From Candidatus Paceibacter sp. (GTDB lineage Bacteria; Patescibacteriota; Patescibacteriia; Magasanikbacterales; UBA922): a stretch of DNA of 64,000 nt. Shown piece by piece: positions 40,734 to 49,624 of the stretch. Under the pieces are notes generated by a model. It did no database searches. It had not been told where the DNA came from and saw only the letters and a program-made list of their open reading frames with translations. The translations under genes were made by a program, and so were the position numbers. The stretch spans positions 1,504 to 65,503 of the forward strand of contig DYFM01000001.1 in NCBI GenBank assembly GCA_020725175.1. The letters are read 5' to 3'. How positions within the stretch are numbered: the first letter of the stretch is position 1; each line of letters begins with the position of its first letter.

Positions 40734-40808
40734 GCTCTCGTCGTTCAATGGATAGGACATGGGTTTGCGGAACCCAAGATCTAAGTTCGATTCTTAGCGA
40801 GAGCACCA
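40734..40808 (+). tRNA. tRNA-Arg (anticodon GCG) with encoded CCA
   Basis: GCTCTCG-TC-GTTC-AATGGATA-GGAC-A-TGGGT-TTGCGGA-ACCCA-AGAT-CTAAG-TTCGATT-CTTAG-CGAGAGC-A-CCA; 7-bp acceptor, U8, GG in D-loop, U33, purine 37, TTC in T-loop, A58. Confidence 0.75.
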
Positions 40809-41160
40809 ATAGAAGAGTCGTTTCCGCCCGAGGCGGACCCGCCTTGGGCGGGCAATGGATAGGACATGGGTTTGCGGAACCCAAGATCTAAGTTCGATTC
40901 TTAGCAGGTGCACAGTGTATAGGTGTTGGTTTGTCGGGTCATCCGACCCGATCGGGTTGAATAACCCGACGGAACCCAAGATCTAAGTTCTCCTCCCGAG
41001 GCGGATCCGTCCTGGGCGGAGATTCTTAGCAGGTGCACAGTGTATAGGTGTTGGTTTGTCGGGTCATCCGACCCGATCGGGTTGAATAACCCGACGGAAC
41101 CCAAGATCTAAGTTCTCCTCCCGAGGCGGATCCGTCCTGGGCGGAGATTCTTAGCGAGAG
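40809..41160 (+). repeat. Composite tandem array: partial tRNA-Arg copies (D-loop-to-T-arm, then anticodon-stem-to-T-arm x2), each later unit split inside the T-loop by a 30-bp GC-rich palindrome, separated by an identical 65-bp palindromic spacer; ends with a duplicate of the tRNA 3' acceptor strand
   Basis: ggaacccaagatctaagttc...gattcttagc recurs at 40770, 40877, 40972, 41097; 125-bp unit 40906-41030 is repeated exactly at 41031-41155; palindromes ccgcccgaggcggacccgccttgggcggg (40824) and tcctcccgaggcggatccgtcctgggcgga (40989, 41114); final cttagcgagagcac repeats the tRNA 3' end. Confidence 0.8.
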
Positions 41161-41164
41161 CACG

Positions 41165-41191
41165 AAAAAACTGCCAATATGGCAGTTTTTT
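41165..41191 (+). terminator. Rho-independent terminator closing the tRNA/repeat unit
   Basis: aaaaactgcc-aatat-ggcagtttttt perfect hairpin plus T6. Confidence 0.75.
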
Positions 41192-41218: not shown

Positions 41219-43196
41219 TCAACTAGTTGTTGATGAATATTTATTTTTTAACATTTTCACGAGTGCTTCGGCCGCATGTTTCGCTAGTTCTACTTTACTT
41301 ATGTTATTTTTTCTCAAATTATCATCTCCCAATGCTTCTATCATCGTGTAACAGACACCGGATGGCAGTTCTGATAAAAGCTGTCGCCAATATTTTTCAA
41401 CTGTACTACTATAACTTTCAGCAAAAAAGTTATTTCCAAAAGGAGTATTTGTCTTTTCTCCACTTATAAGAGTTACTCCATGCTGAGTAATTGTAGCTTT
41501 TGAATCATGTTTTTGAGTGCCGGAGTTTACAGCCCGTTCTGCTTTCTGGAAAATTTCAAACGCTGTTTGTTGATCTTCGATATTTACAATCGCACTGTCT
41601 GGGGTGTCATCAAGATTATCAAGTTGTGATAAGGTGCCTTTCTTGTGAAGTTCGGTGGCAATTCTTTTCGGAATAATAAAATTATTTGTGTAGAATACAT
41701 GATGCACTTTATGTTCTTGGGGATTTCCATCCTTATCAAAGGCAAACCGTGACATGTTTGGATCCATCACACGGGCATTTTTTTTGCCGGTTGTTATTGT
41801 TGTTCCTTGTATATTAGCAAACTCTTCCATCATTTTTGAGTCGGCATTTGACATGTTGCCATAGTCGCCGCGCTCTACAGGAATGGCGTACCATCCATCT
41901 TTTTTTTTTCCTCATATGAAACATATCACCGGCTACAATGCGTAAATCTACTATACTTCCGGCTTTTTTCATTCGAGTAAGTTGCTCAATCATTTCACCT
42001 TTTCCGGTGGAACTCTCTCCGGCAAATGCAAGGCCTATCCATTCTCCGCCTTTTTCTAACTGAATCTGCACACATGCTCCGTGAACAGGTAAAATAGTCT
42101 CGCCTTCCCGAAGGAGTGCTTCCGTATTCGCCATTTCGGAAATGCACTTTTTAGCGTAAGCGTGGTATCGGTGTCCTGGATCAGTATCCGTCGTCAACTT
42201 ATCAGATAAAAATCCGACATGTACTCGCTTTCCCCCTACAGGCTGGTGAGTGTAGTAGAATCTGTCATTTAAACTGTTTTCTGTAATCGTTTCGTGACTG
42301 ACTCCTAAGAAGAGAATATTGTCAAACGTCAGACCATGGAAATTTTTCGCCACCATAAATTGCTGCGAACAGGTGACAAGTTGTTCTAAAAACGTACGTT
42401 TATTAAAAATTGCTAGCGTATTTGTAACCCCAGTTCTAAGCGGTAAAGCAAGATAATCCCCCGGAACAATGGAGTCAAGTAGGGCTTTTATTTCCGGTTT
42501 ATGTTCTTCATATTTAAATCTCCCTTTTCGTTTGTTCGAGTCGGTTGTAAATATAATTTGGTTGATGAGTGGAATAACATCTGTTACGACCGGAACTTCT
42601 CTCACTATTGTGTCCAATTTTTCGTCTCCTGTTTGTATTCGTTCTTTATCTTGATCGTTAAAATGACTATACTCAATGACAAACTCATGGGTTGGATCAA
42701 GAAAAACCGATTTGTTTTCAAAGTGGAAAGGGTTTTTTTTTGTTCCTACTGCCTGTTCTATTGCACCAAACATTTGATAGAGTGACTGTTTGAGAGTGCG
42801 AAACTTTTCAATATTCTTTGTAGTTGCTTGTTCTGTGTCTTGACTTTTCATTATTCCGTAACGAATAGAGAAGGTGGTCCAGTGATTGAATAGACTCTGC
42901 AAATCTTGTCGCAATTTTGTACGATCAACCCATCGAGGTACATTTTTATTATGTATAATATCTTGTAAAATAGGCAAATTAAGTACTAAAGGTTCATAGT
43001 TTTTTTTCCACCGAGAAAAAATAGCCTTAAATTGATTACTTCCCACAATTTCTTGGGGAGATTGACACAGTTCTTCTTCGGGAGTATCTATTGGTTCTCT
43101 TGTTGGTACCGTATCGGCTGCGGTTGCTAATGCATCTTGAGATGTGATGGGTTTGTTATATTCTGGCGCTATTCCATCATTTGTTATTATGCTCAT
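41219..43196 (-). pseudogene. ~660-aa P-loop protein (resembles the PEP-carboxykinase / HprK kinase fold) split into 460-aa and 211-aa ORFs by a +1 frameshift at a poly-A10 tract (plus-strand T10 at 41890-41899)
   Basis: Deleting one A fuses the frames: ...GDMFHMRKKK|DGWYAIPVERGDYGNMSNADSK.... Motifs GLAFAGESSTGKGE, IVAGDMFHM..DGW and VHHVFYTNNFIIP parallel PEPCK GLSGTGKT / LIGDDEHGW / VSYPIYHIDNIV, from memory. Confidence 0.5.
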
Positions 43197-43411
43197 AAAG
43201 TATTTTTATTAAACATGCTACTATGATACACCTTTGTACGAATAAGTAAATGGTTTAATGGGTTTTTTGTGGATAATTTTTTTGCTTTTGTGTATCGAGT
43301 AAGTTGGTGGGGCGCGGGACATGCGTAGTGTCTGGTAAGAAGTAGAGATGTTGGGGGAGTGAGATATGGGTTAGTAGAGTTTTTTTGCTATTCCTGCTAC
43401 AATAATTCCGT

Positions 43412-45613
43412 ATGAAGCTCACCACCAAAGTCAGTCAACTAAATCGCGTGGGGGAAGTGCTTGCTCGGCGATTGAAGCATCTCGGAATTGAAACCGTAGA
43501 GGATTTGTTATTTTACTATCCATTTCGATATGAAGATTTCAGTCAAAGCGAACAGATAAAAAAATTGAAAGAAGGAGAACAGGTGACGGTACGAGGAAAG
43601 GTGGAACTTATCGCCAATAAACGGAGTCCTCGAAAAGGAAAAATTATTACCGAAGCGGTGGTGGCTGATGACGCGGATCGGTTGCGGGTGGTGTGGTTTG
43701 GTCAGCCGTTTATCGCAAAAACAATTCATGTTGGAGATACGGTTTTTTTGTCCGGAAAAGTCTCTCGAGATATGTTTGGGCTGGTCATGAAATCACCGAG
43801 TTATGAAAAAGAAAAGAAACTTGCAAAACAGCACCTTGAAGATATTTCTTCACAGCAAAAAGATGGCGATATTGAACAGACGCACACTGGAAGGTTGGTG
43901 CCGATCTATTCTTTGACTGCCGGGATCACTCAAAAACAGCTACGTTTTTTGATTAGTCAGGTAATTTCACTCTCGTCAACACTGGAAGAATGGTTGCCGG
44001 TAGAAATATTGGAAGGGGCGGACTTGATACCAATTCAGGACGCGGTGAAAGCCATTCATTTTCCCGAAGATCGGACCGATTTGCAGCAGGCAAAAAAACG
44101 GTTGAAATTTGATGAACTATTTATTCTTCAGCTTCGGGCTGAAATGATCCGTCAGTCGATCAAACGCGAAGAAGCGCCGAAACTGGTATTTCAAGAAACA
44201 TTGATCAAAGAATTTGTTCAAAGACTACCGTTTACGTTGACCAATGCACAAAAGATTGCCACCTGGGAAATTTTACAAGATATTCAAAAATCGGAACCGA
44301 TGAACCGTTTGCTCGAAGGTGATGTGGGAAGCGGAAAAACGGTGGTGGCAGCGATGTGTCTGTATAACGCGGTGTTAAACGGGTATCAGGGAGTTTTGAT
44401 GGCACCAACGGAGATACTCGCGAAACAGCATTTTGAATCTATTGTTAGTTTGTTGGGAGAAGCATGTGCTGTCGCGTTGTTGACTGGTTCTGAAACTGGA
44501 AATTGTCAGCCCAAGGCTGATCCGCCTCGGGCGGAGAAATTGGAAATTGGGGAAAAAACAAAAAAGGGGAAAAGAGCGGAATTGTTGAAGTTTGTAAAAA
44601 ACGGAACAGCGAACATTATTGTTGGTACCCATGCGTTGTTGGTGGATGAGGTGAAGTTTAAACAGTTGGGATTGGTGATTGTGGATGAGCAGCATCGTTT
44701 TGGAGTAGAACAGCGAAAAACAATCCGCGAGAAGTCCGGGGTTGGTGGAATGACACCGCATTTCTTGAGCATGACGGCGACTCCAATTCCGCGTTCATTT
44801 GCGCTGACGCTCTACGGCGATTTAGATTTATCAATTATCAATCAAATGCCGGCCAATCGAAAGCCTATTCAGACACGACTCGTTGATCCGCATCAACGGG
44901 AGAAAGCCTATGGATTTATTCGATCTCAAGTGAAAGAAGGGAGGCAGGTATTTGTGATTTGTCCGTTGATTAGCAAGGAACAAGGAACAAGGAACAAGGA
45001 ACAAGATGTTGAGCCATCGCGTTTACTATCTTTGCAGGATGAGAGAAAGACCGTGATGGAGGAATATGAAAAATTGAAAAATCATGTTTTTCCGGATTTG
45101 CGTGTGGGGTATTTGCACGGGAAAATGAAATCGGCGGAGAAAGATGTGATGATGAAGCAGTTTGCGGCCGGAGAGATTGATATTTTGGTGTCGACGTCGG
45201 TGGTTGAGGTTGGGGTAAATATTCCAAATGCCTCGGTCATGATGATTGAGGGGGCGGAGCGTTTTGGACTCGCGCAGTTGCATCAGTTTCGGGGGCGAGT
45301 AGGGCGAAGCGAGTATCAGTCGTATTGCTTTTTGTTTACCGAAAGTCAGTCGGACAGCTCGCGAGGGAGACTGGAATTTTTTGAAAAAACTCTTGATGGT
45401 TTCAAACTGGCTGAATATGATCTCAATACGCGAGGTCCCGGAGAAGTCTATGGTACGTCCCAAAGTGGCCTCATGAATTTTCGGTTGGCAAGTATGAAGG
45501 ATACTGCTATAATCAAACTGGCCCGAGATACGGCCCGGGGAATTGATTTTGAAAAATACCCGTTACTTAAGGAAAAAGTAAAAGAATGGGAGGGGAGAGT
45601 ACATTTGGAATGA
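43412..45613 (+). CDS. recG: ATP-dependent DNA helicase RecG, with two in-frame insertions (palindromic element; heptamer repeat)
   Basis: Wedge/OB N-terminus, helicase motifs GDVGSGKT (I), DEQHRFG (II), TATPIPRS, QFRGRVGR (VI). Confidence 0.9.
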   Translation: MKLTTKVSQLNRVGEVLARRLKHLGIETVEDLLFYYPFRYEDFSQSEQIKKLKEGEQVTVRGKVELIANKRSPRKGKIITEAVVADDADRLRVVWFGQPFIAKTIHVGDTVFLSGKVSRDMFGLVMKSPSYEKEKKLAKQHLEDISSQQKDGDIEQTHTGRLVPIYSLTAGITQKQLRFLISQVISLSSTLEEWLPVEILEGADLIPIQDAVKAIHFPEDRTDLQQAKKRLKFDELFILQLRAEMIRQSIKREEAPKLVFQETLIKEFVQRLPFTLTNAQKIATWEILQDIQKSEPMNRLLEGDVGSGKTVVAAMCLYNAVLNGYQGVLMAPTEILAKQHFESIVSLLGEACAVALLTGSETGNCQPKADPPRAEKLEIGEKTKKGKRAELLKFVKNGTANIIVGTHALLVDEVKFKQLGLVIVDEQHRFGVEQRKTIREKSGVGGMTPHFLSMTATPIPRSFALTLYGDLDLSIINQMPANRKPIQTRLVDPHQREKAYGFIRSQVKEGRQVFVICPLISKEQGTRNKEQDVEPSRLLSLQDERKTVMEEYEKLKNHVFPDLRVGYLHGKMKSAEKDVMMKQFAAGEIDILVSTSVVEVGVNIPNASVMMIEGAERFGLAQLHQFRGRVGRSEYQSYCFLFTESQSDSSRGRLEFFEKTLDGFKLAEYDLNTRGPGEVYGTSQSGLMNFRLASMKDTAIIKLARDTARGIDFEKYPLLKEKVKEWEGRVHLE
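44510..44536. mobile_element. GC-rich palindromic element in frame inside recG (cccaaggctgatccgcctcgggcggag); reverse complement matches the 40824 element
   Basis: rc ctccgcccgaggcggatcagccttggg vs 40821 tccgcccgaggcggacccgccttgggcggg; encodes ...CQPKADPPRAEK... in an insertion absent from typical RecG. Confidence 0.65.
44974..45005 (+). repeat. (CAAGGAA)x4 heptanucleotide tandem repeat inside recG coding sequence
   Basis: caaggaacaaggaacaaggaacaaggaacaag encoding KEQGTRNKEQ in a loop insertion. Confidence 0.9.
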
Positions 45614-48193: not shown

Positions 48194-49624
48194 ATGCCAT
48201 CATCAATTCCTCTCACCCTCACCTACGACGATGTTCTTCTCGTGCCAAAACGCACACCGCTTGCGTCCCGATCGGAAGCAGATATTCGTAGTCGCTTTAC
48301 GAAACATATTTGGCTGAACACTCCTTTCGTCAGTGCCAATATGGCAACCGTGACGGAACATAAAACCGCCATTGCTTTGGCACGAGAAGGTGGACTTGGG
48401 ACTATTCATCAGTTCGGCACCATCGCTGAGCAAGTGCAAGAAGTAAGGCGAGTAAAACGCAGTACCAGTTATGTGGTGGAAGATCCGGTAACTATTCATG
48501 TCTGGGCTACGCTTAAAGAAGCCAGAGATCTCATGGAACAAAAAGAAGTAACCAGTCTCATAGTCATGAGTGGGGAAGATTTGGTAGGGCTTCTTACGCA
48601 TCGAGATTATACCTTTGAGACCGATGGGAATCGATTAATTCGAGAACTCATGACCCCGCGAGAGCGACTTATTACCGCTGATTACGGTATCACGCAAGAC
48701 GCGGCGAAAGATATTTTTCGTACCTACAAAGTGGAAAAGTTACCGCTACTCGAACAGGGAAAACTGCGTGGACTTATTACTACAAAAGATATCAAGCGAA
48801 TGGAACACTGGCCATTGGCATCCCGAGACGCGAAAGGACGGCTCATGGTGGCCGGGGCGGTGGGGGTAAAAGATTCACTGGAGCGAACCGAAGCATTGAT
48901 TCGAGCCGGGGTGGACGTTATTGTCATGGACATTGCCCACGCGCATTCTGATCTCATGATCAAACAACTTCGTGAAGTAAAATCTAGTTTTTCTATTGAT
49001 GTAATGGTTGGAAACATTGCTACTGCCGCGGCAGCTCATGACCTTGTTGAGGCTGGGGCTGATGGGCTAAAAGTAGGAATTGGACCTTCGCCAGTGTGTA
49101 CCACCAGAATTATGTCAGGCGCTGGCTATCCACAGCTGAGTGCTGTTATGAATGTGGTGTCGGTTGCTAAAGAACATGATGTGCCGGTAACGGCCGATGG
49201 TGGAATGAAATATCCGGGTGATGTAGTAAAAGCTATTGCCGCCGGAGCGAGTAGTATTTTTTCCGGTTCTTTTTTTGCCGGTACAGATGAGGCTCCCGGT
49301 ATTATTATCATGAAAGACGGAAAACGCTATAAACGCTACGCTGGCAGTGCATCATACGAAAGTGGACATGCGAGAAAAGAGCGTGATGAAGGGCGACAGC
49401 TCAAAGAAAATATCGATGTTTTTGTGGAAGGGGTTTCGGTATTGGTTGATTATAAAGGCTCAGTTTCTGATGTTGTGCGGGGATTGAAAAAGGGACTGCA
49501 AAGTGGAATAAGTTACTGTGGTGGAAGAAATATCGAGGAAATGCAAACGAACGCGGAGTTTATCCAAATTACGTCTAGTGGATGGGTAGAGTCGGGTTCA
49601 AGAGGGATGAAGGTGATGGAGTGA
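48194..49624 (+). CDS. guaB: Inosine-5'-monophosphate dehydrogenase (with CBS pair)
   Basis: 476 aa; ...LKVGIGPSPVCTTRIMSGAGYPQLSAV... (catalytic Cys loop), tandem CBS region 48470-48800, GGMKYPGDVVKAIAAGAS. Confidence 0.9.
   Translation: MPSSIPLTLTYDDVLLVPKRTPLASRSEADIRSRFTKHIWLNTPFVSANMATVTEHKTAIALAREGGLGTIHQFGTIAEQVQEVRRVKRSTSYVVEDPVTIHVWATLKEARDLMEQKEVTSLIVMSGEDLVGLLTHRDYTFETDGNRLIRELMTPRERLITADYGITQDAAKDIFRTYKVEKLPLLEQGKLRGLITTKDIKRMEHWPLASRDAKGRLMVAGAVGVKDSLERTEALIRAGVDVIVMDIAHAHSDLMIKQLREVKSSFSIDVMVGNIATAAAAHDLVEAGADGLKVGIGPSPVCTTRIMSGAGYPQLSAVMNVVSVAKEHDVPVTADGGMKYPGDVVKAIAAGASSIFSGSFFAGTDEAPGIIIMKDGKRYKRYAGSASYESGHARKERDEGRQLKENIDVFVEGVSVLVDYKGSVSDVVRGLKKGLQSGISYCGGRNIEEMQTNAEFIQITSSGWVESGSRGMKVME

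Follow-up and report, generated by a model that had tools for sequence, protein, structure and literature searches.

A ten-adenine tract interrupts the gene of a predicted PEPCK-fold enzyme in Candidatus Paceibacter

Introduction

Bacterial RNA polymerases slip on runs of at least nine A or T (PMC5009743); across the genome, slippage in A/T runs consists mainly of insertions (PMC5574713). In tssM1 of C. rodentium, a run of 11 A gives rise to transcripts with 10-15 A (PMC4256274). Ribosomes, in turn, slide where AAA codons follow one another, and coding DNA contains fewer runs of this kind than expected (PMC4363877). Here we describe a gene split by a run of ten A on its coding strand (A10), found in a stretch of 64,000 nt from Candidatus Paceibacter sp. 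(assembly GCA_020725175.1, contig DYFM01000001.1, positions 1,504 to 65,503; "the window" below). The repaired product of this gene has a predicted fold of phosphoenolpyruvate carboxykinases (PEPCK).

As in the poly(A) frameshifts rescued by slippage (the A11 run of C. rodentium tssM1, and those of Buchnera and Blochmannia), a coding-strand run of at least 9-11 A splits the gene, and its downstream part is intact. Unlike those cases, the present one is known from the DNA sequence alone, its rescue requires the loss of one A or the gain of two, and the tract is absent in relatives. We hold, with about even confidence, that the tract reflects a real and recent insertion of one A (A9 to A10), which would have silenced the gene of an accessory PEPCK-fold enzyme or left its expression leaky. 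The allele would then be a young pseudogene or a leaky one, not maintained by selection.

Results

One gene interrupted by a homopolymer

An earlier sequence-only reading of this stretch had described two minus-strand open reading frames (ORFs) of 460 and 211 amino acids that overlap at an A10 run, and had predicted a single protein of about 660 amino acids upon removal of one A. Both ORFs are present as described (the overlap is 41 nt). The tract also exists, being located ten nucleotides away from the place given by that reading (41890-41899): it occupies positions 41900-41909 (T10 on the plus strand) and is the longest homopolymer of the window. The coding strand around it reads ATG AGG AAA AAA AAA AGA TGG. 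Deletion of one A yields an ORF of 658 amino acids, reading ...IVAGDMFHMRKKKDGWYAIPVERGDYGN..., with exactly the predicted junction, HMRKKK followed by DGWYAIPVERGDYGN. Addition of two A's likewise restores the frame (659 amino acids). The elements of the interrupted gene are the following.

41814-43196, minus strand: ORF1, 460 amino acids
41219-41854, minus strand: ORF2, 211 amino acids
41900-41909, minus strand: frameshift site (A10 run, AGG AAA AAA AAA A/GA), the only uninterrupted AAA-AAA-AAA among the lysine triplets of the window's long ORFs
41912-41914, minus strand: TGA closing the downstream (+1) frame, directly 5' of the A run, as read from the sequence
41901-43196, minus strand: N-terminal 432 codons of the ancestral gene (M1-K432, frame 0), with the PEPCK-like N-domain, Y344-x4-K349-K350, H372, the P-loop and D424
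41814-41900, minus strand: out-of-frame tail of ORF1 (28 codons, RWMVRHSCRARRLWQHVKCRLKNDGRVC, plus stop), without homology to relatives
41219-41899, minus strand: C-terminal 226 codons plus stop (+1 frame, D433-S658), with invariant E441, G443, N473, R475, N505, T560, G573 and F586
41855-41899, minus strand: fifteen codons DGWYAIPVERGDYGN after the frameshift and before the first start of ORF2, expressible by neither annotated ORF, with invariant E441 and G443

The frame change required is +1 (or -2), not -1, as the -1 frame reaches a stop after eight codons. Since the TGA at 41914-41912 lies directly 5' of A10, a productive frame change must fall inside the A run. The first ATG, GTG or TTG of the downstream frame is the ATG at 41854, and because of this start and the upstream TGA the fifteen codons enter neither product.

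To the extent of the window, the tract is singular in its effect. The homopolymers considered (A/T of at least 7, G/C of at least 6) comprise 91 tracts, giving 182 tests on both strands, and A10 is the single case in which an open stretch of 100 codons or more in one frame leads up to the tract and another of 100 or more, in a different frame, leads away from it. The remaining 90 tracts, five of them 9-mers, leave the reading frames intact.

Two further elements flank the pair of ORFs.

43223-43250, minus strand: sigma-70-like promoter match TTTACT-16-TATCAT, 27 nt upstream of the ATG (consensus match only)
41165-41191, minus strand: terminator-like hairpin with the core CUGCCA/UGGCAG between A6 and U6, beginning 28 nt past the ORF2 stop (dG -13.8, z -3.81)

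With a promoter-like site upstream and a terminator-like hairpin downstream, ORF1 and ORF2 are placed in one putative transcription unit, and a single transcript would be expected over both.

Relatives and ancestry

A word-indexed search of 5.8 billion clusters gave, besides the 460-amino-acid ORF itself, a single homologue, P0002, which is a single ORF of 722 amino acids with 37% identity across 92% of the fused query. The BLASTP alignment of the fused protein with P0002 (E-value 3e-138) is end-to-end and continuous across the junction (GDMFHMRKK-KDGWY-AIPVERGDYGN in the fused protein, GDMLHLSNKGTDGPYVAKPVERGDYVN in P0002). An exhaustive HMMER scan of 1.84 billion representatives yielded a second full-length relative, P0003, again a single ORF (838 amino acids, E-value 6e-114). 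The homologous DNA at the site of the tract is non-homopolymeric in both (AAT AAA GGC in P0002, AAG AAG GTA in P0003). In the comparison with orthologues that the sequence-only reading had proposed, both close homologues are single ORFs aligned straight across the junction. We conclude from these alignments that the two annotated ORFs are one gene cut by a homopolymer frameshift, with a single chain as the ancestral state.

Further searches did not extend this group. No other clade member was found in the GTDB species genomes scanned with family peptide patterns, the scan of metagenome contigs (JGI) recovered only the contig of P0002 itself, and a second word-indexed search with a three-sequence profile added nothing. 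The scans of IMG/VR and GenBank phages contained no relative, and as both were empty, a phage origin of the gene is without support. The clade of the repaired protein is very rare and patchy, with only three lineages in exhaustive searches covering about 15 billion proteins; such a patchy distribution is expected if the gene is dispensable.

Tract length in independent assemblies

Five contigs encode the exact 460-amino-acid product, down to its out-of-frame tail: a 196-kb JGI contig (3300029893) and two similar records, a Logan contig of SRR5011275 seen in two samples, and a Logan contig of SRR5011273. The DNA of three contigs was fetched, and all three carry A10, as does the window. The products that A9, A11 or A12 would encode are absent from the collection of 15 billion proteins. 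No length polymorphism of the tract was found, A10 being common to all five contigs and the window, where the lengths come from consensus assemblies, in which minority lengths are invisible.

The window represents a haplotype slightly different from that of the JGI contig, with seven single-nucleotide polymorphisms (SNPs) and one extra 125-bp repeat unit. One of the SNPs is a synonymous change in the frameshifted gene (42552), and the other six are clustered in guaB, where they are packed in 76 bp (49366-49441).

Predicted fold and family of the repaired protein

The fused protein has no match in Pfam, NCBIfam or PDB sequences even at E-values up to 10, so that the profile search against PEPCK_ATP and HprK_C suggested by the sequence-only reading gave no hit in Pfam or NCBIfam. 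The exhaustive scan identified about 75 distant relatives, mostly of 500-600 amino acids, which have a core of about 170 residues in common, extending across the junction; their N- and C-terminal matches are weaker and collinear. Curated profiles match these relatives only weakly, under or near the cut-offs: 22 of 49 sequences have a PEPCK_ATP hit (at E-values up to 0.01, the best being 2.3e-06), six a DUF4914 hit and four an Hpr_kinase_C hit.

The alignment of 49 sequences has 20 invariant columns. Twelve of them precede the break (R223, Y344, K349, N357, P370, H372, G393, G398, K399, E401, D424 and M425), and eight follow it (those listed above for the C-terminal segment). AlphaFold2, run on the fused sequence with this alignment, produced one compact fold (pLDDT 84.5, pTM 0.87), which replaced an earlier model made with three sequences that was too weak (pLDDT 56.6). 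In the model the frameshift site is a turn between strands 425-431 and 434-439, in a block with pLDDT 96-98.

The top 50 Foldseek matches of the model in PDB are all ATP- or GTP-dependent PEP carboxykinases, with E-values from 1e-14 to 7e-10 over 470-656 aligned columns, at 10-14% identity and TM-scores of only 0.36-0.49. No HprK structures occur among these 50 matches. The AlphaFold2 model and the Foldseek matches agree on a two-domain PEPCK fold over the full length. Moreover, hhalign aligned the family profile with E. coli Pck (probability 79.7%, E-value 1.5e-5); the PDB search with the family profile returned generic P-loops only. The core motifs, and the residues paired by hhalign with those of E. 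coli Pck, are as follows.

41994-42020, minus strand: P-loop GESSTGKGE (G393-E401), with K399 aligned with E. coli Pck K254
41922-41939, minus strand: kinase-2-like strand IVAGDM (I420-M425), with D424 invariant in the family
41771-41779, minus strand: N473-A-R475 (NARV), aligned with NTRV (R333) of E. coli Pck
Y344-x4-K349-K350 of this protein: Y207-x4-K212-K213 of E. coli Pck
H372 of this protein: H232 of E. coli Pck
K399 of this protein: K254 of E. coli Pck
N473-A-R475 of this protein: N-T-R333 of E. coli Pck

Y344, K349/K350, H372 and R475 are invariant or nearly so across the 49 sequences. According to the motif reading D424 likely corresponds to E. coli D269, a pairing suggested in spite of the offset of this short segment in hhalign. 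With respect to the P-loop pattern G-x-x-G-x-G-K-[TS], K399 aligns to K254, and the position of the Mg-ligating hydroxyl is Gly400; this position is Gly here and in P0002, and Ser in P0003 and the wider family.

Taken together, sequence alignment and model place the repaired protein among the enzymes of the PEPCK superfamily, with the Mn and phosphoryl-transfer residues retained. The PEPCK/HprK-like identity proposed by the sequence-only reading therefore stands in its PEPCK-like part, given the 50 top fold matches, and fails as membership in PEPCK_ATP or HprK_C, given the absence of a curated profile match; the protein is nearer PEPCK than HprK. The motif parallels noted there (GxxxxGK, GDD.H.., ..E.G.Y..) agree with the predicted fold, and the Pck profile alignment agrees with them in part, the kinase-2 Asp being ambiguous.

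Several observations concern the wider family. No shared operon was found among the gene neighbourhoods of three distant relatives. A phosphoglucomutase/phosphomannomutase gene adjoins or is near the PEPCK-like gene in two unrelated genomes (relatives P0006 and P0098, loci L063 and L066), possibly by a functional link or by coincidence, and we treat this as anecdotal. PEPCK-like cores are also found near the C-termini of giant proteins of about 2000-2200 amino acids (P0024, which carries an aminotransferase domain, P0028, P0036, P0050, P0063, P0073 and P0076), and N-terminal to a SAICAR-synthetase domain in P0059 (646 amino acids); these appear to be domain fusions of the wider family.

Lysine codons and flanking sequence

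Lysine in the window's long ORFs is encoded by AAA and AAG at 954:272 (AAA 78%). The other eight runs of three lysines all contain AAG, the probability of which by chance is 0.525^8, about 0.006; AAAAAGAAA occurs in six of the nine lysine triplets, and the frameshift site is the sole pure AAAAAAAAA. This looks like a genome-wide avoidance of A9 tracts. The frameshifted gene itself has three other long sense-strand A runs, A8 (41778-41785), A9 (42733-42741) and A8 (43000-43007), and with A10 these make up 4 of the 14 sense-strand runs of at least 8 A in about 52 kb of coding DNA. The avoidance of such tracts and the number of A runs in this gene would be consistent with weak expression and weak constraint of a gene in which a hazard has been realised, as well as with a selected slippery site.

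RNA structure flanking the tract was compared with shuffled sequences, and none was significant (z of -0.18, -1.64 and +0.96). The tetramer GAGG abuts the A run; it occurs 307 times in the window, and as a common tetramer it was not relied on as a Shine-Dalgarno-like stimulator of a +1 shift.

Neighbouring elements of the window

Next to the frameshifted gene, a tRNA gene is followed by three partial copies of its segment from the anticodon stem to the T arm (40734-41165 in all), with GGAACCCAAGATCTAAGTTC present four times (zero expected). Two of the three partial copies are interrupted by a GC-rich double hairpin of 30 nt, and the last one ends like a tRNA 3' end. The double-hairpin motif GCGGATCCGYCYNGGGCGGA has eight hits at four loci (zero expected).

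40734-40808: tRNA-Arg, anticodon GCG
40823-40852, 40991-41020 and 41116-41145: double-hairpin motif loci flanking the tRNA fragments
44506-44535: double-hairpin motif inside recG (43412-45613, plus strand), in frame, encoding ...CQPKADPPRAEK...

The same region contains a 125-bp unit in 2.1 perfect tandem copies (40896-41155), of which the JGI contig has one fewer. The tRNA fragments and this repeat, adjoining the frameshifted gene, may be what is left of an integration site, or a hotspot of repeat expansion. The in-frame double hairpin in recG resembles the Rickettsia palindromic elements inserted in coding genes.

The guaB product (IMPDH, 48194-49621) has 62-73% identity to proteins from many metagenome-assembled genomes of Woesearchaeota and Nanoarchaeota (DPANN) and from one of Candidatus Magasanikiibacteriota, and only 37-57% to the three remaining bacterial hits, which points to an IMPDH type common to DPANN and the candidate phyla radiation (CPR). 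The genes around the frameshifted one are also of a kind typical for CPR bacteria, to which the organism probably belongs.

Discussion

Origin and consequences of the A10 allele

In the explanation we favour, one extra A in an AAA-AAA-AAA lysine tract (A9 to A10) would have shifted the frame of a single-copy gene. In the model the break falls in a tight beta-hairpin turn of the nucleotide-binding core, between the kinase-2 Asp D424 and the strand with E441 and G443. The ORF1 product would end, after the N-domain, the P-loop and D424, in a tail of 28 unrelated residues and would lack E441, G443, N473, R475 (the equivalent of R333), N505 and the whole C-terminal subdomain; ORF2, for its part, could not begin before M448. 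With ORF1 devoid of the C-terminal half and ORF2 starting no earlier than M448, neither product is likely to be active alone, and a two-piece enzyme is very unlikely. The allele would be off or strongly hypomorphic, with full-length enzyme coming only from minority events, either an A9 or A12 transcript made by RNA polymerase or a +1 slide of the ribosome on the A run. By analogy with other bacteria, some full-length protein from A10 is plausible, and its amount is probably little. As slippage is mainly insertion, rescue here would rest mostly on the rarer event of adding two A's.

As expected of a pseudogene, the frame is disrupted relative to intact orthologues; no further lesions or relaxed constraint were found downstream, by a test that has no power against a recent event. 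Several observations weigh against a simple inactivation. The downstream 226 codons contain no stop and keep all eight downstream family-invariant residues. In the Tajima relative-rate test, with P0003 as the assumed outgroup, the downstream part shows 22 unique changes against 21 in the intact homologue (p 0.88), hence no acceleration, and the N-terminal part 58 lineage-specific changes against 31. An intact and unaccelerated downstream part would also be the outcome of continued selection through recoding. Two haplotypes as similar as these have no power for dating the insertion, and a minority A9 population would be compatible with consensus-assembly data. Finally, heterogeneous transcripts of such A10 tracts are known in other bacteria (PMC4256274; PMC5009743), so some full-length protein is likely to be made, selected or not.

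Alternative explanations

A plain inactivating insertion and rescue by slippage were both missing from the sequence-only reading, and we rank them at least as high as the two explanations it offered, a homopolymer error and a contingency switch. The intact downstream frame, with all invariant residues and no acceleration of rate, could likewise mean that A10 is kept by selection as an expression valve, the PEPCK-fold kinase being made, at a low set level, only when RNA polymerase slips to give an A9 or A12 transcript or when a ribosome slides by +1 on the lysine codons. The length of the tract, at or above that at which bacterial RNA polymerases slip, fits such a role, as do the precedents of tssM1 and of sliding on AAA codons, the predicted single promoter-to-terminator unit of ORF1 and ORF2, and the position of A10 as the sole uninterrupted KKK tract in a genome that otherwise interrupts such runs with AAG; moreover, the host is probably a small-genome CPR bacterium, a setting akin to the endosymbiont cases. 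Still, we consider maintained recoding unlikely. Although the coding strand offers a slippery homopolymer of at least nine A, neither the slippery site nor the two-frame layout is conserved, P0002 and P0003 being single ORFs that lack the tract. No stimulatory RNA structure was found around it, and the adjacent GAGG is a common tetramer. Rescue calls for the loss of one A or the gain of two, yet slippage in A/T runs mostly inserts, and a +1 requirement would suit it better. Nor is there evidence that the allele has persisted beyond about 0.06% sequence divergence.

A phase-variable contingency switch, in which replication slippage would toggle A9 (on) and A10 (off) and the assemblies would report the majority off state, shares with known mononucleotide-repeat contingency loci a long tract inside a coding region (10 nt is within their range) and an on state one unit away, in a gene otherwise intact. 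We find it doubtful, as it has no positive support, and rank it slightly below maintained recoding. Unlike those loci, this one shows no length polymorphism, the five contigs from at least three data sets all having A10 and no on-state product occurring in 15 billion proteins. Moreover, the tract is absent from homologues and lies 65% into what is probably a cytoplasmic enzyme of metabolic type, rather than close to the 5' end of a gene for a surface protein, a restriction-modification system or an antigen, and no other tract of the window has a frame-switch signature. Homopolymers are also the classic site of indel errors, and the repaired gene is perfect, as it would be if the true genome had A9 and an intact gene. 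However, A10 is present wherever the gene occurs among assemblies and sequencing runs (the JGI assembly, the Logan re-assemblies of two SRA runs, and the slightly different haplotype of the window), and no A9, A11 or A12 product was found; therefore an assembler or platform artefact is improbable, the more so as the other 90 homopolymers, five 9-mers among them, leave frames undisturbed. The gene-caller annotations of NCBI, JGI and GEM contain two proteins, which would suit a functional split gene whose separately translated products assemble into an active two-subunit enzyme. This we regard as the least probable of all, since fifteen codons with invariant E441 and G443 are in neither product, ORF1 ends in 28 unrelated residues, the cut falls inside a core beta-hairpin, and both homologues are single chains.

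Significance

The frameshift as such is an ordinary phenomenon, one more homopolymer frameshift, and a caution that the two annotated "hypothetical proteins" are halves of one gene; the enzyme family is the more novel element. The rare clade of the repaired protein sits in a wider PEPCK-fold family of about 560 amino acids that Pfam and NCBIfam models miss. This family keeps the PEPCK Mn and phosphoryl-transfer residues, which makes it a tractable target in the search for a new substrate, or for a cryptic PEPCK where the enzyme is thought absent. If A10 were, against the odds, a maintained valve, recoding in the CPR would be described for the first time, in a branch of the PEPCK superfamily not modelled before, and slippage-dependent expression would extend from insect endosymbionts to free-living ultra-small bacteria.

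Comparison with known enzymes

With HPr kinase/phosphorylase (PF07475) the repaired protein has in common the P-loop G-x-S-x-x-G-K-x-E, followed by a G/D-D strand and then by an E-x-G strand. The matches of relatives to this family are weak and sub-threshold (P0003 has an E-value of only 0.0089), and HPr kinase/phosphorylase has no PEPCK N-domain, Y-x4-KK motif or His motif.

The PEPCK-like family of about 560 amino acids (e.g. WP_034528740.1 from Secundilactobacillus oryzae, with the source label PEPCK) shares with it the 170-residue core across the junction (E-values from 1e-13 to 1e-4), the 20 invariant residues and the weaker collinear termini. It differs in being shorter, with about 20% identity and the consensus GDSGAGKSE / FDDMG / GTEIGAFVRLDD. 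Members of this family are themselves below the Pfam and NCBIfam cut-offs, and their gene neighbourhoods vary.

Compared to the ATP-dependent PEPCK (E. coli Pck/PckA; PF01293, TIGR00224), the repaired protein lacks a curated profile match, has 12-14% identity and a TM-score of 0.36-0.49, carries GKG instead of GKT in the P-loop, and has about 100 extra N-terminal residues. Nevertheless, the two share the two-domain fold (Foldseek E-value 1e-14 over about 555 columns) and the same order and spacing of Y-x4-K-K, the Mn-site His, the P-loop Lys and N-x-R-V. By motif reading, the hairpin that contains the frameshift matches GDDEHGW-DDDG-VFNFEGG of Pck, so that the KKKDG turn in which the tract lies would correspond to its DDDG turn.

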